A stretch of 32,000 bases of DNA from Geobacter sulfurreducens PCA (lineage in GTDB: Bacteria > Desulfobacterota > Desulfuromonadia > Geobacterales > Geobacteraceae): NCBI RefSeq assembly GCF_000007985.2, contig NC_002939.5:2430001-2462000 (forward strand). Reading direction: 5' to 3'. The notes below the pieces were generated by a model. It saw only the letters and a program-made list of their open reading frames with translations, did no database searches and was not told where the DNA came from. The position numbers and the translations under genes are program-made. Position 1 is the stretch's first letter. The number at the start of each line of letters is the position of its first letter. Below are positions 1 to 27,824 of the stretch, one piece after another.

Positions 1-154
1 GGTCCGGTTTCAAGTCGATAATTTTGCGGATACCCTCCTCGCCGTCGGTGGCATACCCGATCACCTCCACCTCGGGCATGCTTTCGAGCATCTTGGTGAT
101 GGCGCGGCGGCTGTAGGCCGAATCGTCGATGACCACGACCCTGATCTTTCTCAT
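1..154 (-). CDS. cheB: Response-regulator receiver, probable CheB methylesterase (5' end only; gene runs off the window)
   Basis: Not in the ORF track because it is truncated. My minus-strand translation from ATG 152-154 is [51 protein letters not shown], a CheB-type receiver N-terminus. Its start overlaps the cheR stop as ATGA (151-154). Only the receiver is visible, so CheB identity is inferred from the position after cheR. Confidence 0.6.
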
Positions 155-1020
155 GGCCGGCCTCCCGGAGGGAGAGGTTTCTGGTAGACCATGTCGTTCT
201 TCAGGTGCTTGAGGGCAAACGCCGTGGATATGTTCATCAGCGATTCGGAATGGCCGAGCAACAGGTAGCCTCCGTCCCGCAGGACGCGGTGGAAGGAATC
301 AATCACCGTCTTGCGGGCGGCCTGGTCGAAGTAGATGATGACGTTGCGGCAGAAGATAACGTCCATGCGGCCCAGAAGCGCGATGCGGTTGGTATCGAGA
401 AGGTTGAGGTGGCTGATGGTGACCAGTTCGCGGACCCTGTCGTTGACCCGGAACATGCCGTCCTGTTCGGTGAAGTAGCGGCGGACATATCCCTCGTCGG
501 TGACCCGGAACGATGACTTGCCGTAGACCCCCTTGCGGGCCTGCTGAATCACCCGCTGGCTGATGTCGGTTCCGATGATTTCCACGTGCCAGCCGGCAAA
601 GCCACCCATTTCCAGCAGAAGCATGGCAATGGTGTATGGCTCCTCGCCACTGGAGCAGCCGGCGCTCCAGATCCGGAGCGTCCGGTCGCCGGCCTTGGCC
701 TTGGCGTCGCGGATTTCAGGGATTATCTCCTGGGTGAAGGCTTTGAGCTGGAACGCCTCGCGGAAGAAATAGGTCTCGTTGGTGGTGAGGACATCCATGA
801 TGTCCGAGAGTTCCTGGTCCTTCTTCCGGTTGTAGCGGAGGAAATGGTAGTAGTCCCGGAACCCCGACAGCTGGTGCAGTTGCACCCTCTTGGCCAGGCG
901 CTTTTCCAGAAGATAGGCCGAGTCGCTGTCGAAGAAGAGACCGCAGTGGCTGTAAATGAGGTCCCGGATGAGGCGGAACTCCTCATCTGACATGGGTATT
1001 TCGGGCTCGAAGGTAAACAT
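151..1020 (-). CDS. cheR: Chemotaxis protein methyltransferase CheR
   Basis: 289 aa. N-terminal CheR helical domain ([16 protein letters not shown]). SAM-methyltransferase motifs [24 protein letters not shown] and [12 protein letters not shown] at 1018-1020 overlaps the upstream stop (TAATG). Confidence 0.93.
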
Positions 1021-3023
1021 TAGCGCAGACCGCCGAGCAGAGTTTGGAGTTCGTCGCGCACCAGTTCATCCTGCTCTCGCTGGAGGGCGACAGTGAGGTG
1101 CGGCATCGCCTCGCGGCCCAGAAGACGGGTCATGGCCCTGGCGAAACTGATCCGGACATCCCAGTGGGAATGGCTCAGGAGGCGATCCCGATAGGCATTC
1201 ACCCAATCGCTGCCGTCGTTCGCCAGCAGATCGATCGCCACCTTGACCACCTCTTCGTCGCTGCTATCAAGCCCACGCTTCACCAGACGCACCGCCCGAT
1301 CGCCCTCGATCTCGGAGAGCGTCTCCAGGGCCGTGATCATCACCACCCCATCGGCGGAATCGATCAGCCGCTCGATAGCGTCAAGTGACCGCTCCCCGCC
1401 GATCCGGCCAAGGCTCCTCAGGGAGGCGCACCGGACCCACGGATCCTCATCATCCAGGGACAGGATCAGGGGTTCCACCGCCTCACCCCCGCCGATCTCG
1501 CCGAGGCCCGAGGCTGCCGCGATCCTCACGTCCGGGTCTTCGTCCACCAGTGCCATCACCAGATTGGACACGCTTTCTGGGAGATGCTGATCCGCCAGGG
1601 CCGACACGGCGCTGCGCCGCACCAGGGGGTCTTCATCCTTCATCAGGAGCGCCAGACGGTCCGCATCGCCCAGGGAAGCGTAAAGCCGAACCGCGTCGTG
1701 CCGCGAACCGGTGGCTGGCGAATCGGCGAGTTTACGGGCTATGGCCCTCACTCCGGCCGGCTCGGCCGGGGCAAGGCGGATGAGGCCATTAATGGCCCCT
1801 TCGCGCACATCGTGCTCCCGGTCATCAAGCAGGGCCGCGATGGACCCCATCAGGGACAAGATACCGATCTTCCCCGCCGCCACGGCAGCAGCCTTGCGCA
1901 TCATGGGCCGGGTGCTCTCCATGGCCGCACCGAGGAGATCGGCACACCCGGTGAAGCCGAGCTCACCCCAAACCTGGATGATGATCGACTTTTCCTCGTC
2001 GTCCGCCGCAGGATAGGCGGCCGCCAGGGCCTCCATCCCCCGCTCGCCCATGGTGCGCAATCCCTGGAGACAGAGCCTTCTGAGCCGTTCGTCCCGACAT
2101 CCCTGCAGAAGGGGCAAGGCGGCGCGGGCATCGCCGATGTAACCGAGAACCCGGATCAGCGCGTCACGTACCCCCTGATCCGTGGTATCCAGTGAGCCGA
2201 GCAGTCCATCGACCACGGCAGAGCCCGTGAGCCGCGCCAAGGCATCATCAACGCACCTGGCCGCCGCGGCGCCGGCGAGACGGCCCCGCAGACGGATAAT
2301 GGCGCAGGCAGCCGCCTCCCGCACGGCACGGACACGGTCGCCGAGCCCTTCCACCAGGAGCGGTACCGCTTCGGCATCGCCCACGGCACCGAGACACTCG
2401 ATCACCGGCCGCTTCAGAATACCGTCCGACGCGTGGGGGGTAAGGATGTTCACCGGCACCGGTTCGCCGATGCGGGTCAGGGCGCCGAGGATTGAGTAGC
2501 TGAACCAGACATCGTTCTTGCCGAGGGCGGCCAGCAGCGGCGCAACAGCACGCAGATCGCCGATCTTGCCGAGGTTTTCCGCGGCAGCGGCCGAAACGTT
2601 GGGGTCCGGGTCGTCAAGGGCGTCGATCAGGGCGGGGATACTTGACCGGTCGCCGATGGTGCCAAGGATGTCGACCACAAACTTGCGGACGTCGCGGTCG
2701 TCATCCTTGAGGTGAGTGAGCAGCGCAGGCACGGCCCTCGACTCCAGCCCTTCGAGCACCTCGACGGCCGAATTGCGCAGACCGGCATTGTCCACCGACG
2801 AGAGCAGCCCGATGATCCCCTCGATGGTTCCCTCATCCGGGCACATGCCGAGCAGGAGAGACACTGCCTCTTTGCGCACCCGCCAGCTGACGTCACCCAT
2901 GGCGACGAAGAGCGGTTCGCGGGCATTGGCAAGAGGAACGGCCGCCAGGTCGAGCACGGCCCGACGCCTTGTCTCTTCGTCGGTCGATTGGAGGTCGGCA
3001 TTTACGGTTTCCAGAACAGCCAC
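1020..3023 (-). CDS. HEAT-repeat (PBS-lyase-like) protein, 667 aa
   Basis: GTG start at 3021-3023 with AAGGAG 7 nt upstream. More than 10 tandem units of the type D-x-D/E-x-x-VR-x-x-A-x-x-x-LG-x-IG, for example DDRDVRKFVVDILGTIGD, DPDPNVSAAAAENLGKIGD, DEDPDVRIAAASGLGEIGG and DEDPWVRCASLRSLGRIGG. No catalytic motif recognised. Confidence 0.85.
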   Translation of the reverse strand: MAVLETVNADLQSTDEETRRRAVLDLAAVPLANAREPLFVAMGDVSWRVRKEAVSLLLGMCPDEGTIEGIIGLLSSVDNAGLRNSAVEVLEGLESRAVPALLTHLKDDDRDVRKFVVDILGTIGDRSSIPALIDALDDPDPNVSAAAAENLGKIGDLRAVAPLLAALGKNDVWFSYSILGALTRIGEPVPVNILTPHASDGILKRPVIECLGAVGDAEAVPLLVEGLGDRVRAVREAAACAIIRLRGRLAGAAAARCVDDALARLTGSAVVDGLLGSLDTTDQGVRDALIRVLGYIGDARAALPLLQGCRDERLRRLCLQGLRTMGERGMEALAAAYPAADDEEKSIIIQVWGELGFTGCADLLGAAMESTRPMMRKAAAVAAGKIGILSLMGSIAALLDDREHDVREGAINGLIRLAPAEPAGVRAIARKLADSPATGSRHDAVRLYASLGDADRLALLMKDEDPLVRRSAVSALADQHLPESVSNLVMALVDEDPDVRIAAASGLGEIGGGEAVEPLILSLDDEDPWVRCASLRSLGRIGGERSLDAIERLIDSADGVVMITALETLSEIEGDRAVRLVKRGLDSSDEEVVKVAIDLLANDGSDWVNAYRDRLLSHSHWDVRISFARAMTRLLGREAMPHLTVALQREQDELVRDELQTLLGGLR

Positions 3024-3050
3024 GCACGTGCTCCTTGCGTTGATTATCAG

Positions 3051-4001
3051 TTACAGGCCGAGTTCTCTCCTGATCGTGCCGATGAACTCGGCGAACGCAT
3101 CATCCAGGTATGACGTTCCGGCACGGACATCGCCGGGCACTCTGTTCTCGTAGAGGGAGCGCCCTTCGGCCACGTCCTCGGCAAGCAGCTCGAAGAAGGT
3201 GCCGTTGCGGACTCCTTCCCGCACGAGGTCGCGATTATAAAGTGCGATATCCGAAACAATGAGCCGGGCAAGCCGGCGGGCCTTATGATGCTCATCGGCG
3301 AGTGTCGGTTCGTCCCCGCCATATTCGTCGTTGCGGGCGTCTCCGCAGTGTTGCGCCCCTGAGTCCCCGCCGGGAGGCGCTTGTTCTCCGGGAACCATTG
3401 TCGGGCCATCTTCCCGGGGAGGAGCTCCCCCGCGGAGCGGCGACGTTTCAGGCGTCGTGCCCGCCAGGAGCCGGCGGACGCGGGCGGGCAATTCGTCCGG
3501 AATATGGTGCTTCTCCAGATAGTCGTCCGCTCCGTGGAGCGACTCGGGAGCACGCTTGTACTTCGCCTTGTCATAAATGGAGGCGACGAGAATGATCTTG
3601 ATGTCCGCCGTGGCTGGCGAACCCTTTACCGCTTCACATATCTCGAAGGCGAACATCCCGGGGAGCGCCGCATCGAGAATAGCCACCCGGGGATGCCGCT
3701 CAAGGATTATCGCATAAGCGCCGGCACCGTCGGCCGCCTCAAGAACCTCGAACGGTTCACCGGCCAGAGCCTGTCGGACAGTATTGCGGAAAACCGAATT
3801 TTCATGGGCCACGAGAACCCGCGTCACGGTCTCCGTGGTGGACGGCTGGTGCGGGATGCGCGGGGAGGCTTTTCCCCGCACCTTGAAGACGGTGCGGCAC
3901 GAACTGCACCGCAATGTTACTCCCCCGTCCGGGATCCGAGCTCCGTCAAGCCGGTACCGCGCCTGGCAGACAGGACACCCTGCGATGATCACATCCGCCA
4001 T
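3051..4001 (-). CDS. Zinc-ribbon (MJ0042-type) protein with a receiver-like domain and an uncharacterised C-terminal domain
   Basis: The track start at 4004 is TTG. The next codon is ATG (3999-4001), which overlaps the cheW stop (TGATG). N-terminal CPVC-x19-CSSC zinc ribbon. The receiver-like core is RVLVAHENSVF...VAILDAALPGM...IILVAS...YLEKH: the phospho-Asp position is kept, but the usual N-terminal acidic DD pair reads HE. A Gly/Pro-rich linker follows. The C-terminal ~80 aa (ARRLARLIVSDIALYNRDLVREGV...) is a domain I cannot name. Confidence 0.8.
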   Translation of the reverse strand: MADVIIAGCPVCQARYRLDGARIPDGGVTLRCSSCRTVFKVRGKASPRIPHQPSTTETVTRVLVAHENSVFRNTVRQALAGEPFEVLEAADGAGAYAIILERHPRVAILDAALPGMFAFEICEAVKGSPATADIKIILVASIYDKAKYKRAPESLHGADDYLEKHHIPDELPARVRRLLAGTTPETSPLRGGAPPREDGPTMVPGEQAPPGGDSGAQHCGDARNDEYGGDEPTLADEHHKARRLARLIVSDIALYNRDLVREGVRNGTFFELLAEDVAEGRSLYENRVPGDVRAGTSYLDDAFAEFIGTIRRELGL

Positions 4002-4477
4002 CAACGCCCCGTCCCGGCAAGGCCGGCAATGGCCGACGCTTCGCGGCTCGTCAGGATGCGATCGAGATTGACGAGCATGACCAGGGTATCCCGCACCAGG
4101 CAGACACCGATCAGGTACTCGGCACTGACCCCGTCGATGGAATGGGGGGGTGGCTTGATGTCACCCACCTGCACCGTGACCACCTCGGTCACGTCATCAA
4201 CCACGAGCCCCACCAACTGCCGGCTCACCCCAACCACGAGAAGGCGGGCCTCCTCAAGCGCCACCCGCTCGGGCAATTCGAACCGCTTGCGCAGATCGAT
4301 GACCGGAATCACCATGCCCCTGAGATTGATGACTCCTTCCACAAAGGCCGGCGCCTTGGGGAGCTTCGTCAGCTTCTGGGGGCGGATGATCTCCTTGATC
4401 CGCATGATATCGGCGGCAAAGGTGGCGTCGCCGAGGCGGAAGCAGGCGAGCTGTATTTCCTGGATGTCGGTTTCCAT
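4001..4477 (-). CDS. cheW: Chemotaxis coupling protein CheW
   Basis: 158 aa, single CheW domain (FRLGDATFAADIMRIKEIIRPQKLTKLPKAPAFVEGVINLRGMVIPVIDLRKRF). AAGGA Shine-Dalgarno sequence upstream of ATG 4475-4477. Confidence 0.92.
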   Translation of the reverse strand: METDIQEIQLACFRLGDATFAADIMRIKEIIRPQKLTKLPKAPAFVEGVINLRGMVIPVIDLRKRFELPERVALEEARLLVVGVSRQLVGLVVDDVTEVVTVQVGDIKPPPHSIDGVSAEYLIGVCLVRDTLVMLVNLDRILTSREASAIAGLAGTGR

Positions 4478-4531
4478 GCGTATCCTTCGGGAGCGTGGGT
4501 CTGATACGTATGCGAAGGGCGGCCGGCAGCG

Positions 4532-4909
4532 TCAGGCAGCCAGAAGTCCCTGAATGATCTCGATGATCCGGGCCGACTTGAACGGCTTGGTCACGTAAGC
4601 GGAAGCACCGGCCTCCAGCCCCTTGTCACGGTCCTGGGTGCTTTTCTTGGCAGTGAGCATAACCACCGGGATGTGGCGGGTTGACGGGTCGGCCTTGATC
4701 ATCTGGCAGACCTCGAAGCCATCCATTCCCGGCAACATGATATCGAGAATGATCAGGTCGGGAGGTGTGGCTGCAATATAGTCAAGGGCGGACTTGCCGT
4801 CGGTAACCCCTGCCACGGCGTAACCGCGGGAAGACAGCAGAATGCTTTCAAGTTTGAGCAGACTCTCTTCATCTTCGACGATCAGAATCCTTTTCTTTTC
4901 CATCGGCAT
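4532..4909 (-). CDS. cheY: Single-domain response regulator (CheY-like)
   Basis: 125 aa. Canonical receiver residues are present: ILIVEDEE, IILDIMLPGMDG, VVMLTA, YVTKPF. An AGGAGG sits just upstream, and its spacing favours the in-frame ATG at 4901-4903 (MEKKRIL...) as the true start. Confidence 0.9.
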   Translation of the reverse strand: MPMEKKRILIVEDEESLLKLESILLSSRGYAVAGVTDGKSALDYIAATPPDLIILDIMLPGMDGFEVCQMIKADPSTRHIPVVMLTAKKSTQDRDKGLEAGASAYVTKPFKSARIIEIIQGLLAA

Positions 4910-4922
4910 ACCCTCCTGGGTA

Positions 4923-5681
4923 TTACATCAATGCTGAATCGAGCACCTTTTCCAGCTGAAGCAGTATGATTATTCCGCCGTCATGGCGGCCTATGCCGTT
5001 GACAAATTCACGATCCATGCCATCGAGTACGGCAGGCGGATGCTCGATGGTTGCAACCGGTATCTTGACTACCTGGGTAACCTCGTCCACCAGAAGACCG
5101 CACAATCCCTCTCCGTGCTTGACGACGACAATCCGCTCCTTCCCGCGGGCCACGGCATCGGCCAGGCCGAGACGCTCACGCAGGATGAACACGGGAATGA
5201 TGATGCCGCGCAACGACAGAACCCCGGCGACAAACGGCGGTGAATGGGGCACCTCGGTGGTCTCCCGGGGTTTGATGATCTCCTTCAACTCCATGATATC
5301 GATGCCATAGGTCTCGTCGGCCACCCGGAAGCACAGGACTTCCAGATAGGTTTCCGTTTCCCTGGCGGGTTCTGCCTCTGTATCGGAGACAAGGTCTTCC
5401 ACCAGGGCCGCCCGGCGCCCCTGGAGGATAAGCGCCAGAGGGTCGAGAACGGGCGGAGCGGCCGCCGGCACGGAAGCCGGTACCGGAAGGGCAGCATCAT
5501 CGGGAGCGAATACATCGTCGGAAAGCTCCTGGAACTCCGGGACCACCGGCGCTGAAGGTGCGTCGGCAGCGGGCCGGGACGGTTCCGGTCGGGGCTCCCG
5601 CCGCACGTCGCCCGTCGACGCGGCTCCCCCCTGCTGGCGGTCACGCTGGGCCTTTCTACGTATCTCGGCGATATCCATCAT
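4923..5681 (-). CDS. cheW: CheW-domain protein with a ~100-aa Pro/Ala-rich N-terminal extension
   Basis: 252 aa. Residues ~1-110 are low complexity (PRPEPSRPAADAPSAPVVPE...PVPASVPAAAPPVLDP). The C-terminal CheW domain reads FRVADETYGIDIMELKEIIKPRETTEVPHSPPFVAGVLSLRGIIIPVFILRERL. GAGGG Shine-Dalgarno sequence 10 nt upstream. Confidence 0.9.
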   Translation of the reverse strand: MMDIAEIRRKAQRDRQQGGAASTGDVRREPRPEPSRPAADAPSAPVVPEFQELSDDVFAPDDAALPVPASVPAAAPPVLDPLALILQGRRAALVEDLVSDTEAEPARETETYLEVLCFRVADETYGIDIMELKEIIKPRETTEVPHSPPFVAGVLSLRGIIIPVFILRERLGLADAVARGKERIVVVKHGEGLCGLLVDEVTQVVKIPVATIEHPPAVLDGMDREFVNGIGRHDGGIIILLQLEKVLDSALM

Positions 5682-5737
5682 ATCCGTTTTCCCTCGCCAT
5701 GCAAGTTACGACGGCTCCCCACGGAAGCTGTGAGCTG

Positions 5738-6541
5738 TCAGTACAGGTTCGCCTCATCCCGCAACTCCTCCACCAGAGAGGCGTCGATCCACGCCGCATC
5801 CCTGCCGTAGCCGACCAGCAAGGCATTGGTTGCCAGGATATTGATCTTGCGCGGCACGCCGCCCGAAAGTTCATGAATCCGCTGCACCGCGTCCGGGGAA
5901 AAAAGCCCCGGCGTCCCCCCGGCCACTTCGAGCCTGAAATCAATATACTCCAGAGTCTCGTCGAGGCTGAGGGGCTGAAGGTGGTAATGGAGTGCAATCC
6001 GCTGCCGCAGGGGCTCATGGACCGGGTCGGCCAGGATCTGACGCAGCTCGGGCTGTCCCATGAGGACGACGCTCATGAGGTTCTGGTCGTCCAGCTGGTA
6101 GTTGGTGAGAAGCCTGATCTCATCGAACACGTCACGGTCCGGGATGAGCTGGGCCTCGTCCACCACGATCACCGGACAGCGCCCCTCGGCATGCATCAGG
6201 TAGAGCGTTTCCGTGAGTTGTTTCAACAGTTCGTCCTTGGCCCCCGCAGGATTGTCGATCCCAAGGCTCCGGGCGATGACCCGCAGAAACTCCAGCGGCG
6301 AGAGGCGGGGGTTGAAGATGAAGCAGAAGCGGCACGCCTCGCCCATGGCATCCATGAGCGCCCGGGAAATGGTGGTCTTGCCGCAGCCGATATCGCCGGT
6401 CAACAGGGCCAGCTCCCGCTCCTCCACGGCGTACTGAAGCCGCGCAAGGGCCTCCCGGTGCCCCCGCGACAGGAAGAGGTAGCGCGGATCGGGGGTCTTG
6501 GAAAACGGCTTTTCCCGCAATCCATAGAATTCCCGGTACAT
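5738..6541 (-). CDS. AAA ATPase of the ExeA/GspA/MshM-like (AAA_22) type
   Basis: 267 aa. N-terminal FYGLREKPFSKTPDPRYLF signature typical of ExeA/MshM. Walker A is LLTGDIGCGKTT and Walker B is VIVVDEAQ. There is no C-terminal peptidoglycan-binding or membrane segment. ATG 6539-6541 abuts the cheA stop TAA 6542-6544. Confidence 0.85.
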   Translation of the reverse strand: MYREFYGLREKPFSKTPDPRYLFLSRGHREALARLQYAVEERELALLTGDIGCGKTTISRALMDAMGEACRFCFIFNPRLSPLEFLRVIARSLGIDNPAGAKDELLKQLTETLYLMHAEGRCPVIVVDEAQLIPDRDVFDEIRLLTNYQLDDQNLMSVVLMGQPELRQILADPVHEPLRQRIALHYHLQPLSLDETLEYIDFRLEVAGGTPGLFSPDAVQRIHELSGGVPRKINILATNALLVGYGRDAAWIDASLVEELRDEANLY

Positions 6542-8620
6542 TTACCCCCCGCTCCGCAGGGCTTCGCCGATGATCCCCCCCACATCCATGACGAGGATCG
6601 TCCTCTGGTCGCCCAGGTCGGCGGCGCCCGATATCCCCTTGTACCCCTTGAACATGTCGCCCAGTGACTTGATGACGATGTCCTGCTGCCCCACCAGATC
6701 GTCCACGATGATGCCCAGCCGTTTTTCGGCCACGCCGACCACTACCACATAGAAGCTGCCGGGCGGTGGAGTCTCGCGCTTGACCTTGAAAAAACGCTCC
6801 AGCCGCACCAGCGGCAGAGTGGTCTCCCGAAGCTGGTACACCTCTTTCCGTTCCACGGTAAGGATTTCCCGCTCCTCCACAATGATCGTTTCCAGCACCG
6901 ACGTGATCGGAATCGCGTAGGTCCGGTCCGCAGTGAGGACCAACAGTGCCTTGATGATGGCGAGGGTGATCGGCAGAGTTATGATGATCCGGCTCCCCTT
7001 GCCGAATTCGCTTTCGATGTCGACCATGCCCGACACGGCGGCGATGTTGCTCTTCACCACGTCCATGCCGACGCCCCGGCCCGAGAGTTCACTCACCTTG
7101 TCCGCCGTGGAAAAGCCGGGGAGGAAGATGAAGTCGAGGGCGTCCCGGTCGCTCACCCCCTCCAGGGTCTTGATGAGCCCCTTCTCCAGGGCCTTCTGCT
7201 TGACTTTCTCGATGTTGAAGCCCCGGCCGTCGTCGGCCACCTCGATGACGACGTGGTTGCCTTTCTGGTAGGAAGAAAGCCTGATCGTTCCCCGCTCGGG
7301 CTTGCCGGCGGCAATCCGTTCCTCGGGAGTTTCCAGCCCGTGATCGATGGCATTGCGGATGATGTGGACCATCGGGTCCGAAATATCCTCAATGATCAGC
7401 TTGTCCAGCTCGGTGTCTGCGCCGAACAGCTTGAGATCGACCTTTTTACCCTGCTCCCGGGACACCTTCCGAACAATGCGGGACATTTTTTCGAACAGCT
7501 GTCCCACCGGGATCATCCGGATTTCCATGACCCCCTTCTGGAGCTCGGTCAGCTTGCGGTCAAGCCCCTTTGCGGCCTTGCCCAGCTCGATGGCGAGAGA
7601 TGAGAACCCCGCCAGCCTCATGCGGGTGGTAATATCTGCAATGGTGGAGTGGGAAAGGACCAGTTCCCCCACGATGTTCATGAGTTCGTCAAGCTTCCCG
7701 ATGTCGACCCGGACCGTGCGGCTCATGCTCTTGGCAGTCAGTTGATCATCAATACCGGCCGGCATTGTGGCAGGCGTTGCCAGCACCGGAACGGACGGCA
7801 ACGGGGAGGACGGCGGCGGGGAAGCCGGGGCTGCGACGGGCAGGGCAGAGCGCTCTTCCGGCTGGGCGGCAGAGCCGTAGTGGATGATGGTGAGCCCGTC
7901 CCGGTCGAGCAGTGCGGTCAGACCTTCTTCGTCCAAGTCGGTGCCGAAGAGGATGTCGAAATCTATGAAGGATTCGGGGGAAGTGCTGGCGCTCGGCAGG
8001 GTACTGACGACCTCACCCTCTTTTTTGAGCGTGTCGGAGATTTCTCCCAGGTCCTGGTCAAAAGACATGAGACTGAACGATGCATGGATGGAAAAGATGT
8101 TCCGACGCTTTTTCACATTTTCCAACAGGCGGTGTTCTTCGTACTCCGTCAGGGAGCTGAGGACCTTCTCGGGCATGCCCAGTTCCCTGAGGGGTGAAAC
8201 TTCCTGGGCTTCCCGGGCCGAGGCGCAGGCATTGAGTCGTGATACGGCATCCTCGATTGCTGCGCTGTGATCCTCGCCGCTGCCGATGCTGCGGATAATC
8301 CCGCTCAGCAGCTCCATGGAATCGAACAGCACGTTCATGGTTTCGGGGGTGAGGGGGATTTTGCCGAGCCGCAGGGAGTCGAGCAGGTTCTCCAGGTTGT
8401 GGGACAGGGACTGGATCTCCGTAAAGCCGAACATCCCAGCCAGTCCCTTGAGAGAGTGGGAGCCACGGAAAATGGCGTTCAGGAGATCAGGGTCGCATTC
8501 ACCGCTGTCGGCACAGTCGCTGAGAGTGACCAGGTCGGTATTGAGCTTCTCGACAATCTCTTCGGCCTCGGCCAGAAAATCATCAACGGCCCTGCCTGAT
8601 GCGTCGTGCGTGTTGGTCAT
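6542..8620 (-). CDS. cheA: Chemotaxis histidine kinase CheA
   Basis: Hpt/P1 domain (FRGSHSLKGLAGMFGF), dimerisation region, HATPase (IRNAIDHGLE, DDGRGF, GRGVGMDVV), and a C-terminal CheW-like P5 domain. There is no fused receiver. The track start at 8632 is GTG. The in-frame ATG at 8618-8620 has GGAGG 5 nt upstream, so I prefer it (692 aa). Confidence 0.93.
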   Translation of the reverse strand: MTNTHDASGRAVDDFLAEAEEIVEKLNTDLVTLSDCADSGECDPDLLNAIFRGSHSLKGLAGMFGFTEIQSLSHNLENLLDSLRLGKIPLTPETMNVLFDSMELLSGIIRSIGSGEDHSAAIEDAVSRLNACASAREAQEVSPLRELGMPEKVLSSLTEYEEHRLLENVKKRRNIFSIHASFSLMSFDQDLGEISDTLKKEGEVVSTLPSASTSPESFIDFDILFGTDLDEEGLTALLDRDGLTIIHYGSAAQPEERSALPVAAPASPPPSSPLPSVPVLATPATMPAGIDDQLTAKSMSRTVRVDIGKLDELMNIVGELVLSHSTIADITTRMRLAGFSSLAIELGKAAKGLDRKLTELQKGVMEIRMIPVGQLFEKMSRIVRKVSREQGKKVDLKLFGADTELDKLIIEDISDPMVHIIRNAIDHGLETPEERIAAGKPERGTIRLSSYQKGNHVVIEVADDGRGFNIEKVKQKALEKGLIKTLEGVSDRDALDFIFLPGFSTADKVSELSGRGVGMDVVKSNIAAVSGMVDIESEFGKGSRIIITLPITLAIIKALLVLTADRTYAIPITSVLETIIVEEREILTVERKEVYQLRETTLPLVRLERFFKVKRETPPPGSFYVVVVGVAEKRLGIIVDDLVGQQDIVIKSLGDMFKGYKGISGAADLGDQRTILVMDVGGIIGEALRSGG

Positions 8621-8638
8621 GGAACCCTCCACCTCTAC

Positions 8639-9004
8639 TCAGGAGGTGTACTTGACGATCAGATCCTGGAGACGGGCCGGGTCGAACGGCTTGACGAGAT
8701 ATTCGTTCGCCCCGAGCGACAGCCCCTTTTCCCGGTCCCGCTCACTCCCTTCGGTTGAAATGATAAAGAGCGGGATGTGCCTGTAATTGTCGCTGGTGCG
8801 GACAAAGCTCACCAGCTCAAGCCCGTTGATGTCGGGCATGTTGATATCGGTGATGATCAGGTCGAGCCGCTCGCGGGGAAGCAGGCGCAACGCCTCGAAT
8901 CCGCTGGAGGCCTCGACGACCTCGAACCCATCCAGCGACTGGATGGTGGCCACCAGCATCGATCGCATGGTGGCAGAGTCTTCGGCAATCAGAATCCTCT
9001 TCAC
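8639..9004 (-). CDS. cheY: Single-domain response regulator (CheY-like)
   Basis: 121 aa: ILIAEDSATMR, LIITDINMPDINGLE, FIISTE, YLVKPF. The GTG start at 9002-9004 overlaps the upstream stop (GTGA). Confidence 0.9.
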   Translation of the reverse strand: MKRILIAEDSATMRSMLVATIQSLDGFEVVEASSGFEALRLLPRERLDLIITDINMPDINGLELVSFVRTSDNYRHIPLFIISTEGSERDREKGLSLGANEYLVKPFDPARLQDLIVKYTS

Positions 9005-10686
9005 GTTCCCCCCTGGACACTTTCGAGAAGCTTGCGCTCCAGAAGCGCCTTTTCCATGGCCACACCGGCCTGGGAGAGAAAAATCTCCAGGGCTTCGGTG
9101 CCGCCGATCGGCTTTTTGTCGGGCAGATTGTCGCCGTAGAGGATGGCGACGACCCGCCCCTCGCTCACAATGGGGCCGACAAAAACCTCGTCGGGGATCT
9201 CCGGCCCCAGGTGCTCGAACAGGTATCGGTTCCAGGCGGCCGGCTCAGGCCTCACCACGGCTGGATGCTTGGCTTCAATGATCGCGCTGAAGAGGGATTC
9301 TCCGTTACGCGGAATTCGCAGTCTTCTCACTCGCGCGTCGGCGACTCCCCCGGTCTCCTCGATGCCGAACTGGCCAAGCCCGACGATCTCGTCGCGCCTC
9401 ACCATGAAAATGATCGCCCGATTCATGAACTCGGCGGCAAAACGGAGGACCATCAAGGTAACGCCTCCGCCGAGGGCGGGATTGGACAGCTCTTCGAGCA
9501 TCCCCCGCAGCAGCGCTATGCCGGTGCTCGGTTCCACGGACTCGACCTCGCCGTTCAGGTCGTCGCCGAGTTCCAGGCGCAACTCATGCCCCAGATTCAC
9601 CATGTCGCCCGTGGCAACGGCGAGTTCGCCGGCCCGGAGTCTCCAAAGCACATCCAGCAGATCACGGCAGAAACGGTCGGCTTCCCGGGAGTCACCCATC
9701 TGGGCTCTCCGCGGCTTGATGAGGTGGGGATACCCCAGCGCCCCGACCCGGCGTTCGGCGTCACTGTTATGGTAGTCGGACATGACCAGGAGCCGGAGGT
9801 CGGGAAAATTGTTCCGCACGAGCTCCACGAGTTCGAGACCGCCCAGAATACCCGTGCCGTCCATGCGCGGCATGATGAGATCCGCAAGAACCACCGGCCG
9901 CTTTCCCTTGCGATAGAGGGAATCGATCCGGATCAGCGCATCCTCGCTTCGCTCCTGCTGATAAACCCGGTAGCCTCCCTGCTCCAGCGCCGCAGCAAGC
10001 GTCTCCCGGGTCAGATCATCGTCGTCGACAAGGACAAGCGACACCGGCTCTTCGGCCTTTGCCGCCGCGTCCGGCTGCAAGCGGGTCTGGCCGGAAGCAG
10101 GGGGTTCCTCCATGCCGGACAGGTGCGGGACCGCTGCCTGAGGCGCAACAGCGGGAGGGAGGTTTCCGCGATGCCGCTGCTCGTCGATGAGCCGCGCGCC
10201 TTCCATGGCCAGGAACTGAGGATTCAGCCCCTGGTCGAGCATGAACTGCATCGGGTCCATCCGGATGTTGTCGACCGCTTCCACGTTCTCCTGAAGCTCG
10301 AAGTCGAAGGTTCCCTCGACCCAGGCGAACAGCGAGTAGACAACTTTTTCGAACTGCTCCCGGACCACCTCGTCGATGGCTGCCGCCGCGACCCCGTACT
10401 GGCGGATCAGGATCGAGCCGAGCCGCTCCTGGAATCCTTCCCGTTCCTGAAGGGCAAGGGCGCCGCGGAGGGTCGCCAGGTCGATGAGCCCCTTGCGGAT
10501 CAGCAGCTCGCCGAGGCTTTCCTGGAAACTGCTCGACGACGCCCGGATCACTTTGCCCTGGCGGAAAGCGATCTCGCCCAGTCGTCCCCTGCTGTTGACC
10601 CGCAAGACACCCGATTTACGGGAAAGGCTCACAATCTGGAGAATTTCCCCCAGGCCCAGATCTTCCAGGTTGCCGACGAGACTCAT
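9001..10686 (-). CDS. DUF4388 - receiver - GAF-like three-domain response regulator
   Basis: 561 aa. N-terminal DUF4388-type motif (GNLEDLGLGEILQIVSLSRKSGVLRV). Central canonical receiver (LVLVDDDDLTRE, VVLADLIMPRMDG, LLVMSD, HLIKP). The C-terminal ~170 aa look GAF-like (RAIIFMVRRDEIVGLGQFG...GRVVAILYGDN). First gene of the che operon, with AGGA upstream of the ATG. Confidence 0.8.
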   Translation of the reverse strand: MSLVGNLEDLGLGEILQIVSLSRKSGVLRVNSRGRLGEIAFRQGKVIRASSSSFQESLGELLIRKGLIDLATLRGALALQEREGFQERLGSILIRQYGVAAAAIDEVVREQFEKVVYSLFAWVEGTFDFELQENVEAVDNIRMDPMQFMLDQGLNPQFLAMEGARLIDEQRHRGNLPPAVAPQAAVPHLSGMEEPPASGQTRLQPDAAAKAEEPVSLVLVDDDDLTRETLAAALEQGGYRVYQQERSEDALIRIDSLYRKGKRPVVLADLIMPRMDGTGILGGLELVELVRNNFPDLRLLVMSDYHNSDAERRVGALGYPHLIKPRRAQMGDSREADRFCRDLLDVLWRLRAGELAVATGDMVNLGHELRLELGDDLNGEVESVEPSTGIALLRGMLEELSNPALGGGVTLMVLRFAAEFMNRAIIFMVRRDEIVGLGQFGIEETGGVADARVRRLRIPRNGESLFSAIIEAKHPAVVRPEPAAWNRYLFEHLGPEIPDEVFVGPIVSEGRVVAILYGDNLPDKKPIGGTEALEIFLSQAGVAMEKALLERKLLESVQGGT

Positions 10687-10734
10687 ACCCGAATCCTGTC
10701 AACAAGCCGCGGATTGGTGCTGGAAGCGGCGCCC

Positions 10735-10763
10735 ATCATAAACCATCGACCCATGCAAGTAAA
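10735..10763 (-). promoter_or_regulatory. Candidate sigma70-type promoter of the che-like operon
   Basis: Minus strand reads TTTACT-N17-TATGAT (-35 at 10758-10763, -10 at 10735-10740), in the 134-nt der/che spacer about 50 nt upstream of ATG 10686. Motif match only. Confidence 0.3.
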
Positions 10764-10820
10764 GTGGTTACGGCTCCCCGCGAGAGGCCGTCCAGCCGCC
10801 GTTTACGCTCGTTCGGAGGG

Positions 10821-20109: not shown

Positions 20110-20141
20110 ACCCTTCTTTCACCACGGCACGAAATGACTGA

Positions 20142-20172
20142 GCCGCAGCGCGTAAGCGCGTGCGGCTTTTTG
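20142..20172 (+). terminator. Rho-independent terminator after rpmB
   Basis: GCCGCA(G)CGCG-TAAG-CGCGTGCGGC followed by TTTTTG: a 10-bp GC stem with one bulge, a tetraloop and a T-run. It lies between the convergent rpmB and ridA. The reverse orientation lacks a clean U-tract. Confidence 0.7.
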
Positions 20173-20217
20173 TCGTTCCAACACCGGCAGACCCCGCAGA
20201 CAACCACCATCCGCCCC

Positions 20218-20598
20218 TTACTGACAGAGCGCGATCGCCTCGATCTCCACGAGAGCTCCCCGGGGAAGCCCTTTCACCTCCACGGTGGAACGAGCCGGCG
20301 GCGCCGCAGCAAAGCGGCTGCCGTAGACCCCGTTCACGGCGGCAAAATCGGCGAGATCCGCAAGAAAGATCGTCGTCTTCACGATGGCGTCAAATCCGAG
20401 CCCCGCCTCGGCCAGTACTGCGGCCATGTTGTCCATTACGCGCATCGTCTGAACCGTGATGTCCCCGTCGACCATTTCGCCGGTGGCGGGATCAAGGGGT
20501 ATCTGACCCGACAGGAACAGGAATCCCCCTGCCCTCACCGCCTGGGAATAGGGACCGATCGCCTTGGGTGCCTGTTCTGTCGCAACAATCTCTTTCAT
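20218..20598 (-). CDS. ridA: RidA/YjgF/L-PSP family enamine/imine deaminase
   Basis: 126 aa: APKAIGPYSQAVRAGGFLFLSGQIPLDPATGEMV ... PARSTVEV..LPRGALVEIEAIA. Confidence 0.9.
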   Translation of the reverse strand: MKEIVATEQAPKAIGPYSQAVRAGGFLFLSGQIPLDPATGEMVDGDITVQTMRVMDNMAAVLAEAGLGFDAIVKTTIFLADLADFAAVNGVYGSRFAAAPPARSTVEVKGLPRGALVEIEAIALCQ

Positions 20599-20608
20599 GC
20601 TCCCCCCT

Positions 20609-22759
20609 TCAATTTTTCATTCGCTCGACCGAAATGACACCGCTCAGCTTCATGATGTTGTTCATTACCCGCTTCAGGTGATCCAGGTCGGTGACGTCCA
20701 CTTCAAAGATATTGACCCCGCGCTTGTCGACCGTGCTTTGGATCGACGCGCTGGAGATGTTTGCTTCACAATCGGTGATGGCCTGGGTGATGTTGGCGAG
20801 AATACCCTTCTGGTCGTGACAGGAAACTCGGATTTTCACCGGCAGGGCAGCCTTGCGCTCACGGTTCCAGGTGACGGCGATACGGCGCTCCGGGTCGTTT
20901 TCCAGGGCAACGGGACAGTCGGCGGTATGGATCGTGACCCCTCTTCCCCGGGTGATGAAGCCGATGATATCGTCTCCGGGAACCGGGTTGCAGCACTTGC
21001 CGAAACGCACAAGAACATCGTCGACCCCGCCGATCTGGATGGCGCTGGGAGACGAGCCGGTGAGCTTGCCGATCATCTTCCCGATACGGGATTCCTTCTG
21101 TTCCTGGCGTTCCTGAAGCTTTTCCTCGGGAAGCAGCTTGCCGATCACCTGGTTTGCCGAGAGTTTGCCATAACCAACGGCGGCCATGACGTCATCATCG
21201 GTGGAAAGGCCGAACTCCGAGGCCACTCGCTTAATCTCTCCAGCCTTCTGCAGCTTGGCCAGATTGAGAGAATAACGCCGGAACTCCTTCTCAAGGATCT
21301 CCTTGCCGAGAGAGATGCTCCGGACCCGCTCCTCTGTCTTGATCCATGCCCGGATCTTGTTGCGGGCACGGGAGCTCTTGACGATCTTCAGCCAGTCCTT
21401 GCTCGGCGTGTGGTGCGGAGAGGTGATCACCTCCACGATATCGCCGTTCTTCAGCTCATACTTGAGGGGAACCAGCTTGCCGTTCACCTTGGCGCCCACA
21501 CAGCGATGCCCGATGTCGGTGTGGATGGTATAGGCCAGATCAATGGGGGTCGACCCCTTTGGAAAACTCTTCACGTCCCCTCTGGGAGTAAAGACGTAGA
21601 CCTCCTCGGGGAAAAGTTCCACCTTGACCGTATTCATGAACTCGTGGGAATCCTGAAGCTCCTGCTGCCACTCCAGCAGCTGCCTCAGCCAGGCGAACCG
21701 CTTGACCTCTTTTTCGTCGTACCCCTTCCCTTCTTTATACTTCCAGTGAGCCGCGATACCGGCTTCCGCCACCCGGTGCATGTCGGACGTGCGGATCTGG
21801 ACCTCCATGCGCTCCCCGTGCGGACCGATGACCGTCGTATGGAGCGACTGGTACATGTTCCCCTTGGGCATGGCGATATAGTCTTTGAAGCGGCCAGGGA
21901 TCGGCTTCCAGGTCGAATGGATGATCCCGAGGACCTCATAGCACTCCCGGATATCGTTCACCATGACCCGGATCGCCACCAGGTCATAGATCTGGTCAAT
22001 GTCCACATTGCGGGCCTGCATTTTGCGCCAGATGGAGTAAAGGTGTTTGCTCCGGCCGAATACGTCACCCTTGAGGTCGTGTTCGGCAAGCTTGGAGACG
22101 ATGATCTGCCGCACCTCCTCCACATAGCTTTCCCGCTCCTTCTTCTTCTTGGCAACCTTTGAAGCCAGGTCGTAGTAGATCTGTGGTTCCAGGTAACGGA
22201 AGGAAAGGTCTTCCAGCTCGCTCTTGATCCATGAAATACCGAGACGATTGGCAAGAGGAGCATAGATATCGAGGGTCTCGCGGGAGATGGAGCGCTGCTT
22301 CGGCTCGGGCTGGTACTGGAGCGTCCGCATGTTGTGGAGGCGGTCGGCGAGCTTGACGAGGATTACCCGGATGTCGTTGGCCATGGCCAGCAACATCTTG
22401 CGGAAGTTCTCGGCCTGACTCTCCTCTTTGGTCTTGAAGTGGATCTTGCCGATTTTGGTGACGCCGTCTACCAGGTTTGCCACCTCGGCGCCGAACATCC
22501 CCTCCAGCTCCTCCCGGGTCGTGAGGGTATCCTCGATGGTGTCGTGGAGCAGCCCGGTCACCACTGTCGGCACGTCGAGCTTCAGGTCAGCCAGTACGCC
22601 CGCCACCTCCATGGGGTGAACGAGATAAGGCTCTCCCGAAAGACGCGTCTGTCCCTGGTGGACCTTTGCACAGTAGACATAGGCCTTGCGGATCAGGTCC
22701 AGGTCGGCTACGGGATTGTAGGTGACGACCTTATCGAGGATATCGTTGAGCCGTATCAT
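20609..22759 (-). CDS. relA: Bifunctional (p)ppGpp synthetase/hydrolase (RelA/SpoT homologue)
   Basis: 716 aa. HD hydrolase (HPMEVA...LHDTIEDT), synthetase (YRSLHTTV-like QSLHTTVIGPHGERMEVQIRT), TGS (VFTPRGDVKSFPKGSTPIDLAY) and a C-terminal ACT domain. Confidence 0.95.
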   Translation of the reverse strand: MIRLNDILDKVVTYNPVADLDLIRKAYVYCAKVHQGQTRLSGEPYLVHPMEVAGVLADLKLDVPTVVTGLLHDTIEDTLTTREELEGMFGAEVANLVDGVTKIGKIHFKTKEESQAENFRKMLLAMANDIRVILVKLADRLHNMRTLQYQPEPKQRSISRETLDIYAPLANRLGISWIKSELEDLSFRYLEPQIYYDLASKVAKKKKERESYVEEVRQIIVSKLAEHDLKGDVFGRSKHLYSIWRKMQARNVDIDQIYDLVAIRVMVNDIRECYEVLGIIHSTWKPIPGRFKDYIAMPKGNMYQSLHTTVIGPHGERMEVQIRTSDMHRVAEAGIAAHWKYKEGKGYDEKEVKRFAWLRQLLEWQQELQDSHEFMNTVKVELFPEEVYVFTPRGDVKSFPKGSTPIDLAYTIHTDIGHRCVGAKVNGKLVPLKYELKNGDIVEVITSPHHTPSKDWLKIVKSSRARNKIRAWIKTEERVRSISLGKEILEKEFRRYSLNLAKLQKAGEIKRVASEFGLSTDDDVMAAVGYGKLSANQVIGKLLPEEKLQERQEQKESRIGKMIGKLTGSSPSAIQIGGVDDVLVRFGKCCNPVPGDDIIGFITRGRGVTIHTADCPVALENDPERRIAVTWNRERKAALPVKIRVSCHDQKGILANITQAITDCEANISSASIQSTVDKRGVNIFEVDVTDLDHLKRVMNNIMKLSGVISVERMKN

Positions 22760-26747: not shown

Positions 26748-27815
26748 TCACCCGGTTGATGGAAAGGGGGTCGCAAGGAGCCGGGCGATCCCGCCCATGA
26801 GGGCGTCAGCGGTGATACTGGTGCGGCAGGGAGCATCCCTGTCGCACGACTTGCGCAGGCAGGCGGTGCAGTCGAGGGGAGATTGGACGATCACGTGCTG
26901 ATCACCCCGGGGACCGTTGCGGCTGCCATCGGTTGCGCGGAAGAAGGAAACCGTGGGCGTTCCCACCGCGGCAGCCATGTGGACCGGCCCCGTATCCCCC
27001 CCCACCACCACGTCAACCTTTTTGAGGAGTGCGCAGAACCCTTTGAGCGTCAGCTTGGGCAGGACCCGAACCCTGCGGCCGATCCCCGCGGCAATGGCCT
27101 CGGCGGCCTTTTTCTCCTGTTCGTTGCCCCAGGAGAGGAGGATCGTGGCATCGGGAAACATGTCGAGCGCCCTGGTCCCCAGAGCGATCCACCCTTCCTC
27201 GTGCCAAAGCTTCGTGGTCCAGGTGGTGCCGTTATGGAAGAGCAGGACAAAGCCGTCGTCGAGGGTTGCCAGAAACACCTCGGCTGCCTCGTCATCCTCC
27301 GGCGACGTGTAAATATCGGTGCTCAGCTTCATTCCGACATAGTCCCGGCCGAAGGGAACGCTGACCACCCTGAGCGCGCGACTGGAAATGTGATGGTCCT
27401 GGCGGCGGAGCGGCACCTGGTTGGTTGTGAAGTACAGGTTCAGCGACTCCCGGACACCGTCCCGGTCGAAACCGTAGCGGCGCCGGGCATCGGAAAGCCA
27501 CGCTATGAGACCGCTCTTGATGTTCCCCTGCAGATCGAAGGCGATATCGTAGGCCGCTTCGCGCATCTCCCTCCGTACAGTGGCGATCTGGGTGCGCGTG
27601 GTGTCGGAGAGCGGATCGCGCCGCCATGCCTTGGTCCGGACCACATGGAGCCGGCGCAGCAGCGGATGTCCCTCAAGAATATCGCGGTTCCCCTCCTCCA
27701 CCACCCAGTCGATCGCGATGCCGGGGGAAACCTGGTGGAGATAGTCGAGGACGGGCAGCGCATGGATCACATCCCCCAGAGCGGATACCTTGACGATGAG
27801 TACACGAAGCGGCAT
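26748..27815 (-). CDS. Glycosyltransferase family 9 (LPS heptosyltransferase-like)
   Basis: 355 aa: RVLIVKVSALGDVIHALPVL, and C-terminal GGDTGPVHMAAAVGTPTV. Confidence 0.85.
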   Translation of the reverse strand: MPLRVLIVKVSALGDVIHALPVLDYLHQVSPGIAIDWVVEEGNRDILEGHPLLRRLHVVRTKAWRRDPLSDTTRTQIATVRREMREAAYDIAFDLQGNIKSGLIAWLSDARRRYGFDRDGVRESLNLYFTTNQVPLRRQDHHISSRALRVVSVPFGRDYVGMKLSTDIYTSPEDDEAAEVFLATLDDGFVLLFHNGTTWTTKLWHEEGWIALGTRALDMFPDATILLSWGNEQEKKAAEAIAAGIGRRVRVLPKLTLKGFCALLKKVDVVVGGDTGPVHMAAAVGTPTVSFFRATDGSRNGPRGDQHVIVQSPLDCTACLRKSCDRDAPCRTSITADALMGGIARLLATPFPSTG

Positions 27816-27824
27816 GACAGGACC

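Follow-up and report, generated by a model that had tools for sequence, protein, structure and literature searches.

Through which outputs does a chemotaxis-like (Che) operon act when neither a receptor gene nor any flagellar or pilus gene lies in its vicinity? The question is raised by eleven consecutive minus-strand open reading frames (ORFs) of Geobacter sulfurreducens PCA, which occupy positions 1-10686 of the analysed stretch of 32,000 nucleotides (NC_002939.5, positions 2,430,001 to 2,462,000; hereafter the window). A reading of this DNA made without database searches, referred to below as the original prediction, regarded the operon as the best candidate in the window for an uncharacterised signalling system. 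That claim holds only in part, and the system is not an undescribed one, because the locus corresponds to the published che cluster 5 of the Esn network (PMC2577667, PMC2330069, PMC5585712, PMC8242959). The accessory proteins of the cluster are nevertheless still mechanistically unexplained: published work assigns no roles to its PATAN-REC, Zn-REC, HEAT, GAF, and additional CheY proteins and mentions neither a RomX-like nor an MshEN-like module. New here are the 13-gene extent of the operon, its colinearity in relatives, a RomX homologue in the zinc-ribbon receiver protein GSU2217, and a possible MshEN-like module in the PATAN domain of GSU2224.

Identity of the locus

The sequence of window positions 1-10686 has two mismatches to that of G. 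sulfurreducens KN400 in 10,686 nucleotides, and the CheR protein encoded in it is identical in KN400 (CP002031.1) and in AP017912.1. The published tags GSU2220 to GSU2225 map one-to-one onto the gene order of the window: GSU2225 is EngA/Der, GSU2224 a response regulator, GSU2223 CheY, and GSU2222 CheA (PMC8242959), whereas GSU2221 is an ATPase and GSU2220 CheW (PMC5585712). The tags GSU2219 to GSU2214, which are used below for the genes that follow, were extrapolated from the gene order. Because of the near-identity to KN400 and the match of the gene order to the published tags, the locus is identified as che cluster 5 of G. sulfurreducens, a 'beta group', Che8-type cluster that is part of the Esn network and comprises GSU2214-GSU2224, continuing to GSU2212.

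Clusters of the beta group contain cheA, cheW, cheB, and cheR without mcp and are conserved in delta-proteobacteria (Tran et al. 2008, PMC2577667), a description that fits the cluster in the window. The same authors placed the cluster apart from E. coli-like clusters, noted that the genes of methyl-accepting chemotaxis proteins (MCPs) of Geobacter are mostly unlinked to che clusters, and referred to unpublished data on a knockout of cluster 5 with altered expression of the extracellular matrix (PMC2577667). The che8 cluster of Myxococcus xanthus is conserved in G. sulfurreducens (Thomas et al., PMC2330069). The view that the operon encodes a non-motility Che pathway, of a class that is found in deltaproteobacteria and has relatives in M. 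xanthus, is supported by the literature and by the conserved loci described below.

Publications on the pathway already cover its receptor, its kinase, and the electrode phenotype. In transposon insertion sequencing (Tn-seq), mutants with insertions in GSU2220, GSU2221, GSU2222, or GSU1704, an MCP gene that is not linked to the cluster, had a growth defect on electrodes (Chan et al. 2017, PMC5585712). Deletions of esnA (GSU1704), esnB (GSU2220), esnC (GSU2222), and esnD (GSU3376) abolish the colonisation of electrodes, but not growth with Fe(III) oxide or fumarate (PMC5585712). EsnA is a GAF-containing, cytoplasmic-sensing MCP of class 40H that is encoded elsewhere in the genome, and its interaction with EsnB and EsnC was detected by a two-hybrid assay; EsnD is a receiver-diguanylate cyclase (PMC5585712). 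The original prediction was therefore right that no receptor is in view; EsnA had already been published as the product of a distant gene. Since the pathway controls whether Geobacter colonises electrodes, it is of interest in itself, but finding its locus again adds nothing. What the present analysis contributes concerns the extent of the operon and its potential outputs.

A conserved operon of thirteen genes

The operon does not end at the window edge. In the KN400-type genome, cheB is followed by genes for a GAF protein (274 amino acids), a receiver (128 amino acids), a 711-amino-acid poly-c7 cytochrome, and leuS. All eleven predicted ORFs are present in the window, and their coordinates and domains agree with an ORF check and with Pfam and NCBIfam, except that the GAF assignment in GSU2224 is weak. 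The full operon, however, has 13 genes, and the number eleven is an artefact of the position of the window edge.

The conservation of the operon was analysed with the Zn-REC protein GSU2217 as a probe against one genome per GTDB species. A relative of GSU2217 is encoded at 264 places, of which the best 80 were fetched. The presence of a GSU2217 homologue in these loci follows from the construction of the search, whereas the other co-occurrences are real measurements. At least two genes of the cluster are carried by 68 of the best 80 loci, and in 66 of these 68 the genes are colinear. The related loci come from Geobacteraceae, Desulfuromonadales, Thermodesulfobacteriota, and some metagenome-assembled genomes (MAGs) of Nitrospirae. 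Of the loci that extend from cheA to cheW, 56/58 contain the ATPase gene, and the gene of the HEAT protein was found in 59/59 related loci, always between GSU2217 and cheR. The GAF gene was found in 52/52 loci, and where a locus covers the segment between cheB and leuS, the GAF and receiver genes follow cheB without exception (46/46). Among the genes of the cluster, only that of the middle CheY, GSU2219, is frequently absent from relatives; it is present in 36/62 loci spanning both cheW genes. The operon is a 13-gene unit that is strongly syntenic across Geobacterales and beyond, and the co-occurrence of the accessory genes with this Che cluster, proposed as a check in the original prediction, is evident from the counts for the ATPase and the HEAT protein.

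Two kinds of variant loci bear on the wiring of the pathway. In loci L046 (7927-9999) and L079 (6553-8667), a gene for a HAMP-MCPsignal receptor is positioned between the second cheW and the gene of the Zn-REC-RomX protein, which shows the position of the receptor in these distant clusters. A REC-GGDEF gene (3189-4133) directly follows cheA in cluster L061 from Nitrospirae, where it stands in for the ATPase gene. This arrangement is independent genomic support for the connection from CheA to EsnD proposed in Geobacter.

A RomX-like domain in GSU2217

GSU2217 (inferred tag; 3051..4001, minus strand, as are all the genes of the cluster) is a protein of 316 amino acids that consists of four pieces and matches the Zn_ribbon_4 and REC models of Pfam. 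An N-terminal MJ0042-type Zn-ribbon (about 3867-4001) is followed by an atypical receiver (about 3462-3830), a disordered proline-rich linker, and a RomX-like three-helix domain formed by residues about 234-316 (3054..3302) and assigned by homology to PDB 8ZNA. The AlphaFold model of the protein contains three confidently predicted domains with predicted local distance difference test (pLDDT) scores of 80-95 connected by disordered linkers with scores below 50; residues 234-313 are helical with pLDDT 82-94.

The C-terminal 80 residues of GSU2217 match no Pfam or NCBIfam model. However, the domain is similar to RomX of M. xanthus (PDB 8zna_A), with E=8.2e-12 in a phmmer search and E=2.3e-20 for a family profile, and the two are about 45% identical over 71 residues. 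Residues R243, R246, and D251 of GSU2217 correspond to R11, R14, and D19 of RomX, which were shown by mutagenesis to contact MglA-GTP (bioRxiv 10.1101/2024.02.20.581209). Among 81 members of the GSU2217 family, R243 is conserved in 80, and R246 and D251 in all 81. A Foldseek search with the whole GSU2217 model returned matches to receiver domains only, with the FrzS receiver ranked third, and did not retrieve RomX; the RomX assignment rests on sequence.

Helix 3 of RomX binds the receiver of RomR in trans through Leu-75, Arg/Lys-76, and Trp-87 (bioRxiv 10.1101/2024.02.20.581209). The counterpart of Trp-87 is absent from GSU2217: the alignment stops at RomX residue 74, GSU2217 ends about ten residues later, and the family consensus also lacks the tryptophan. 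The loss would be plausible if the receiver is supplied in cis in GSU2217.

The receiver of GSU2217 keeps D57 and K109, whereas D12 is replaced by His, D13 by Glu, and T87 by Ala. The original prediction named the protein a zinc-ribbon pseudo-receiver. The Zn-ribbon and the receiver are indeed present, but the receiver is atypical rather than clearly dead, and the RomX-like C-terminus had been overlooked. A reading as a dead pseudo-receiver was rejected on the basis of the invariance of Asp-57 and Lys-109. The Zn-ribbon has the same cysteine spacing, CxxC-19-CxxC, as that of GltJ, which binds MglB (bioRxiv 10.1101/2024.02.20.581209).

Proteins with a Zn-finger-REC-RomX-like organization, one of them from a Desulfuromonas species, were previously found with Foldseek, but were not placed in a che operon (bioRxiv 10.1101/2024.02.20.581209). 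In the literature that was searched, no paper was found that mentions RomX together with Geobacter, Che8, or esnC. It is disputed whether RomRX is a guanine nucleotide exchange factor or an effector of MglA-GTP (PMC13408092); the RomX domain is a binder of MglA-GTP under either view. A potential partner exists in G. sulfurreducens, the MglA of which, NP_951161.1, is 82% identical to that of M. xanthus and has an MglB partner (PMC3000849). Homologues of RomR are present in Geobacter and Pelobacter. Neither mglA nor mglB was found in the window or beside the stand-alone homologues of GSU2217 in Nitrospirota.

These stand-alone genes for Zn-ribbon-REC-RomX proteins occur in many Nitrospirota MAGs (loci L055-L058, L062, L063, L070, L071, L073, and L077; for example, L062 9288-12297) and sit among housekeeping genes. 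A rhomboid protease gene is positioned upstream and overlaps them, and genes for a sigma-70-family sigma factor and thrS are located downstream.

The RomX-like domain is not limited to the GSU2217 family. A search with it identified 2,116 representative proteins at E<=1e-3, 254 of them at E<=1e-10, which range from stand-alone domains of about 80 amino acids to proteins of 600-1000 amino acids with two to five tandem copies. Proteins P0241-P0255 (for example, P0241, 968 amino acids) contain a receiver and, C-terminal to it, between two and five RomX-like domains in tandem, and some of these proteins have an N-terminal Zn-ribbon. Eight of ten sampled RomX-like proteins match the Pfam receiver model, four of these below the cutoff. 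The RomX-like domain could be a general receiver-coupled module with a varying partner.

A candidate cyclic di-GMP-binding module in GSU2224

GSU2224 (9001..10686), the product of the first gene of the operon, is a 561-amino-acid PATAN(DUF4388)-REC protein (PF14332, E=6e-29; PF00072, E=7e-8) with a weakly GAF-like C-terminus. The original prediction of a DUF4388-REC-GAF regulator is valid for the first two domains, but the match of the third to the Pfam GAF_2 model is weak and below the cutoff (17.6 bits, cutoff 28.6). The receiver keeps the DD pair, D57, and K109. A Tn5 mutant of GSU2224 aggregates and is oxygen-tolerant (PMC8242959).

The PATAN domain of GSU2224 contains a helical insertion (residues 57-111; 10354..10518) with a tandem motif similar to those of MshEN/GSPII domains, which makes it a candidate binding site of cyclic di-GMP (c-di-GMP). 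The MshEN consensus is a tandem of the 24-residue motif RLGxx(L/V/I)(L/V/I)xxG(L/V/I)(L/V/I)xxxxLxxxLxxQ. The first motif of GSU2224 fits the consensus except for the replacement of Arg by Ser, which is Asn in most orthologues. In the second motif, the R, L, and G, the hydrophobic positions, and Q are kept, and the Gly position is occupied by Tyr/Phe. The spacer between the half-motifs is seven residues long, and not the canonical five. The relaxed 24-mer pattern is matched in 22/46 orthologues of GSU2224, and the insertion scores 34.1 bits against NCBIfam NF053729, a model of the MshE-related c-di-GMP motif with a cutoff of 38.

In the AlphaFold model (pLDDT 87), the four-helix insertion superposes on c-di-GMP-bound GSPII modules of MshE and PilF. 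The top eight Foldseek matches in the PDB are c-di-GMP-bound PilF GSPII-B and MshE N-domains, with root-mean-square deviations of 0.8-1.2 Å over 54-58 columns, 30-42% identity, probability of 1.00, and E=0.03-0.18. As judged from the model, c-di-GMP is possibly read by an MshEN-like module within the PATAN domain of GSU2224. Beyond the insertion, the PATAN model has no convincing match in the PDB (next matches: probability <=0.13, root-mean-square deviation >15 Å).

Outputs of the pathway

We consider it moderately likely that the cluster encodes a Che5/Esn non-motility pathway with outputs through both c-di-GMP and MglA. CheA and the two CheW proteins would assemble into arrays together with unlinked receptors of class 40H, EsnA among them, and CheR and CheB would adapt these receptors. 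The single CheA would phosphorylate several receivers in parallel; the phospho-acceptor Asp is kept in all six receivers of the cluster. The first output would be c-di-GMP produced by an EsnD-type REC-GGDEF protein and perhaps sensed in turn by the MshEN-like module of GSU2224. Since c-di-GMP is the product of EsnD, its recognition by the regulator encoded first in the operon would close a loop. For the second output, we infer that GSU2217 would bind MglA-GTP through helix 1 of its RomX-like domain under the control of its own receiver, biasing polarity, type IV pilus, or surface behaviour. By analogy with the interaction of Cpc7 with CheY7, the HEAT protein is probably a CheY-binding adaptor.

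Several observations weigh against this reading. Two catalytic residues that receivers usually have are missing from that of GSU2217, and its phosphorylation is in doubt; the tryptophan with which helix 3 of RomX binds RomR is missing as well. The putative link between GSU2217 and MglA is drawn from sequence, mglA is located away from the cluster, and in Nitrospirota, genes of the GSU2217 family are also found by themselves, apart from any che cluster and with neither mglA nor mglB in the neighbourhood. The RomX-like domain is widespread and almost always attached to a receiver, and its only partner is possibly the receiver in the same chain. As for the MshEN-like insertion, its score is below the NCBIfam cutoff, its first motif begins with Ser in GSU2224, and the Foldseek E-values are only 0.03-0.18. 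The Tn-seq effect of GSU2221 could be polar on cheW. Furthermore, the homology to Che8 rests on the literature, the likeness being drawn from published gene lists.

The alternative that survives best, although we regard it as somewhat unlikely, is a pathway that acts through c-di-GMP alone. The phosphorylation of EsnD would be its only output, the additional receivers would be phosphate sinks or components of the array, and the RomX-like domain of GSU2217 would belong to an intramolecular helix bundle that has no G-protein partner. EsnD shares the Esn phenotype (PMC5585712), the REC-GGDEF gene directly follows cheA in L061, RomX-like domains are nearly always attached to receivers, with up to five in a row, and the stand-alone homologues of GSU2217 in Nitrospirota have no mglA or mglB nearby, all of which is consistent with such a pathway. 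However, it does not account for the invariance, in 80-81 of 81 proteins of the GSU2217 family, of the three residues that contact MglA-GTP in RomX. An intramolecular bundle also fits poorly with the loss of the RomR-binding tryptophan from GSU2217, and the pair of MglA and MglB is highly conserved in G. sulfurreducens. Nor would an output through c-di-GMP alone explain why the genes of the HEAT, ATPase, PATAN, and GAF proteins are conserved.

The possibility that the cluster controls the expression of genes for the extracellular matrix or cytochromes, as M. xanthus Che3 or CheA8 do, is an unlikely one. CheA would then phosphorylate an unlinked regulator connected to transcription, and the accessory proteins would tune this reaction. 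Such a function would agree with the altered extracellular matrix expression in the unpublished knockout data of Tran et al. (PMC2577667) and with the phosphorylation by CheA8 of the orphan regulator MXAN_4468, which controls groEL transcription (PMC9040617). It would also fit the gene of a 27-haem-type poly-c7 cytochrome that trails the cluster with no predicted terminator in between. However, a DNA-binding domain is present in none of the 13 proteins, and control of gene expression is compatible with a c-di-GMP or MglA output rather than exclusive of them. An ordinary flagellar chemotaxis operon with scattered receptors is highly improbable and was rejected: the CheA/W/R/B/Y core is complete and most MCP genes of Geobacter are located apart from che clusters (PMC2577667), but there are no flagellar, CheZ, CheC, CheD, or CheX genes within 10 kb on either side, Esn mutants grow normally with fumarate or Fe(III) oxide, their defect being confined to electrodes (PMC5585712), the accessory genes are conserved, and the published classification separates the cluster from E. 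coli-like clusters (PMC2577667).

Within the favoured pathway with outputs through c-di-GMP and MglA, a more specific proposal can be put forward tentatively. The Che5/Esn pathway might be coupled to both a Ras-like GTPase and c-di-GMP in a direct manner, with GSU2217 serving as a phosphorylation-controlled adaptor that captures or releases MglA-GTP, and possibly MglB via the Zn-ribbon, and with GSU2224 as a c-di-GMP receptor. If this were the case, one CheA would combine signals from the receptors with a second messenger and a G-protein-based polarity switch in deciding on commitment to a surface or electrode. Among chemosensory operons, this one would then be the first to contain its own RomX-type G-protein coupler, and the large REC-RomX family would gain a function.

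The RomX-like and MshEN-like modules offer two concrete output hypotheses for pathways of the Che8/Esn type that can be tested cheaply. They connect Che-like pathways with 'alternative cellular functions' to the MglA/RomRX polarity switch and to the control of biofilm commitment by c-di-GMP. Furthermore, the RomX result suggests a role for more than 2,000 uncharacterised REC-RomX proteins.

Comparison with related systems

The Che8 cluster of M. xanthus (MXAN_4751-4759; PMC3945109) resembles the cluster in the window in that it has no mcp and encodes a CheA without a receiver, two CheW, two CheY, and CheB. It also encodes a 290-amino-acid CheR, and two unnamed genes between cheW and cheR fit the layout of the window (PMC3945109). 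In contrast to the window cluster, no gene is listed between cheA and cheW of Che8 in the published tables, and the cluster thus seems to lack the AAA_22 ATPase. The function of Che8 is described as unknown, apart from the action of CheA8 on an orphan regulator (PMC9040617). The phenotypes that were studied differ, regulation of groEL for Che8 and colonisation of electrodes for the cluster in the window. There are no myxobacterial loci among the best 80 of the genome scan; a profile of distant GSU2217 homologues retrieved only Nitrospirota-like proteins, and the protein searches were dominated by Geobacterales or Nitrospirota. One match to PATAN from Myxococcota is positioned at the end of a contig, and che genes are not seen around it.

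GSU2217 shares with the RomR/RomX-MglA module of M. xanthus a receiver, a proline-rich linker, and a RomX fold with the same MglA-contacting residues, and its N-terminal MJ0042-type Zn-ribbon resembles that of the MglB-binding GltJ. However, the receiver and the RomX fold are fused in one chain in GSU2217 and the gene belongs to a che operon. The protein also lacks both the C-terminal Glu-rich pole-targeting region of RomR and Trp-87 of RomX. The romR gene of M. xanthus, which we take to be MXAN_4461, would perhaps be located beside a CheW-like gene, a possible hint of coupling between Che and RomR/RomX proteins. The orphan double-CheW gene cheWa of M. xanthus is MXAN_4462 (PMC3945109).

The Che7 operon of M. 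xanthus, like that in the window, contains a gene for a PBS-lyase-type HEAT protein, Cpc7, and encodes a CheA without a receiver. Cpc7 is reported to bind CheY7 (PMC9040617). Che7 differs in carrying its own MCP; the HEAT protein of the window has 667 amino acids, and its likeness to Cpc7 is by HEAT type and operon context.

In the Pix/Tax operons of cyanobacteria, a PATAN-REC gene is followed by a gene for a CheY-like protein. The operon in the window likewise opens with these two genes, and GSU2224 has the PatA-type layout of an N-terminal PATAN/DUF4388 domain followed by a receiver in Pfam searches. It differs from PatA-type regulators in its additional GAF-like C-terminal region and MshEN-like insertion. 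PATAN-REC regulators reportedly act on the type IV pilus motor (10.1101/2021.06.11.447907).

Other genes and junctions of the operon

The predicted composition of one CheA, two CheW, CheR, and a probable CheB is confirmed. CheA (EsnC, GSU2222; 6542..8632) is formed of domains P1 (Hpt), P3, P4, and P5 and has no fused receiver. The Hpt, H-kinase_dim, HATPase_c, and CheW domains of Pfam are all above the cutoff, whereas the NCBIfam CheA models match with E=1e-117 to 1e-120, yet below the equivalog cutoffs. The first CheW (EsnB, GSU2220; 4923..5681) has 252 amino acids, including a Pro/Ala-rich N-terminal extension of about 110 residues, and the second (GSU2218; 4001..4477) has 158 amino acids; both were identified with Pfam. 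The CheR methyltransferase (GSU2215; 151..1020) has 289 amino acids and both the N-terminal and S-adenosylmethionine domains of the Pfam family. Only the first 51 codons of the cheB ORF (GSU2214; 1..154) are contained in the window, but the complete protein in the KN400 sequence has the REC and CheB_methylest domains.

Two genes encode single-domain CheY-like receivers with matches to Pfam REC. GSU2223 (8639..9004) has 121 amino acids and its start overlaps the stop codon of GSU2224 in the sequence GTGA. The middle CheY is encoded by GSU2219 (4532..4909); public gene calls start it two codons after the beginning of the longest ORF (123 instead of 125 amino acids).

GSU2221 (5738..6541), the start of which abuts the cheA stop codon, encodes an ExeA/MshM-like P-loop ATPase of 267 amino acids that belongs to Pfam AAA_22. 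It matches TIGR03015, the model of the PEP-CTERM-associated ATPase, at 240 bits, below the cutoff of 324. A sequence search of the PDB returned 'CmpD' as the best match (E=6e-4), followed by the P-loops of MuB, TsaE, and midasin, which provided no functional insight; nor did the search with the GAF protein, with E about 1e-3. The Tn-seq log2 value of GSU2221 on electrodes is -2.1 (PMC5585712). The 667-amino-acid HEAT-repeat protein GSU2216 (1020..3023) is of the PBS-lyase/alphaRep type (HEAT_2, E=1e-71; HEAT_PBS, E=1e-24). It also has sub-threshold matches to NblB, CpcE, and CpcF in NCBIfam and matches to alphaRep structures in the PDB.

The genes are tightly packed, as predicted. The junction sequences GTGA, TAA/ATG, TGATG, TAATG, and ATGA and a 6-nucleotide gap are all present, and the remaining spacers are 13, 27, 54, and 56 nucleotides long. 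The gap of six nucleotides at 8633-8638 exists if CheA starts with the GTG at 8632; starting from the likelier ATG at 8620, the spacer has 18 nucleotides. The ATG is preceded by GGTGGAGGG, which is similar to a Shine-Dalgarno sequence, and is used by public gene calls (692 amino acids). The longest-ORF start at GTG 8632 is thus probably wrong, and ATG 8620 is probably the true start of cheA.

Promoter region and flanking sequences

The genes rnc, a radical-SAM gene, era, and der are located upstream of the cluster, in agreement with the predicted position of the operon directly behind a ribosome-biogenesis operon. The intergenic region between der and GSU2224 (10687..10820; 134 nucleotides) contains a sigma-70-like match at 10763-10735 (TTTACT-17-TATGAT). 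The site is of consensus level only, and the number of matches in the region equals that expected by chance. No terminator is predicted between der and GSU2224, and the scans of the window for promoters and terminators found no more of them than in shuffled sequence. Neither a sigma-54 nor a sigma-28 site is reported for the cluster in published work, and an Rfam scan found no RNA families in the window.

No genes for MCPs, CheZ, CheC, CheD, flagella, or pili were found in the cluster, among the Pfam-scanned ORFs of the window, or within 10 kb beyond cheB, which bears out the original prediction on this point. CheX, CheZ, CheC, CheD, and flagellar genes were found in neither the window nor the 10-kb flanks. 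The extension of the sequence past cheB, which had been proposed as a check, thus revealed neither an MCP nor flagellar genes within 10 kb. With the accessory genes conserved as well, the outcome that was to refute the original prediction was not observed.

The 711-amino-acid cytochrome gene beyond the left edge of the window (L002 13263-15496) has nine cytochrome-c7 matches in Pfam. The last receiver gene of the che cluster ends in ATGA and is separated from the cytochrome gene by 94 nucleotides that contain no predicted terminator. The cytochrome gene may be co-transcribed with the che genes. It trails the cluster in only about a dozen related loci from Geobacteraceae.

Two ORFs of the window, 26883-29039 (plus strand, 718 amino acids) and 20134-20637 (plus strand, 167 amino acids), match no Pfam family at E<=1e-3 and may not be real genes, given the high G+C content of the sequence. 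At the other end of the window, in positions 29000-32000, the G+C content falls from about 0.62 to 0.46-0.51. The genes in this segment encode a family-2 glycosyltransferase, a UDP-N-acetylglucosamine 2-epimerase, and a CapD-like polysaccharide synthesis protein, and two NAD-dependent sugar epimerases at 24.7-26.7 kb adjoin it. The segment looks like a surface-polysaccharide island of foreign composition.

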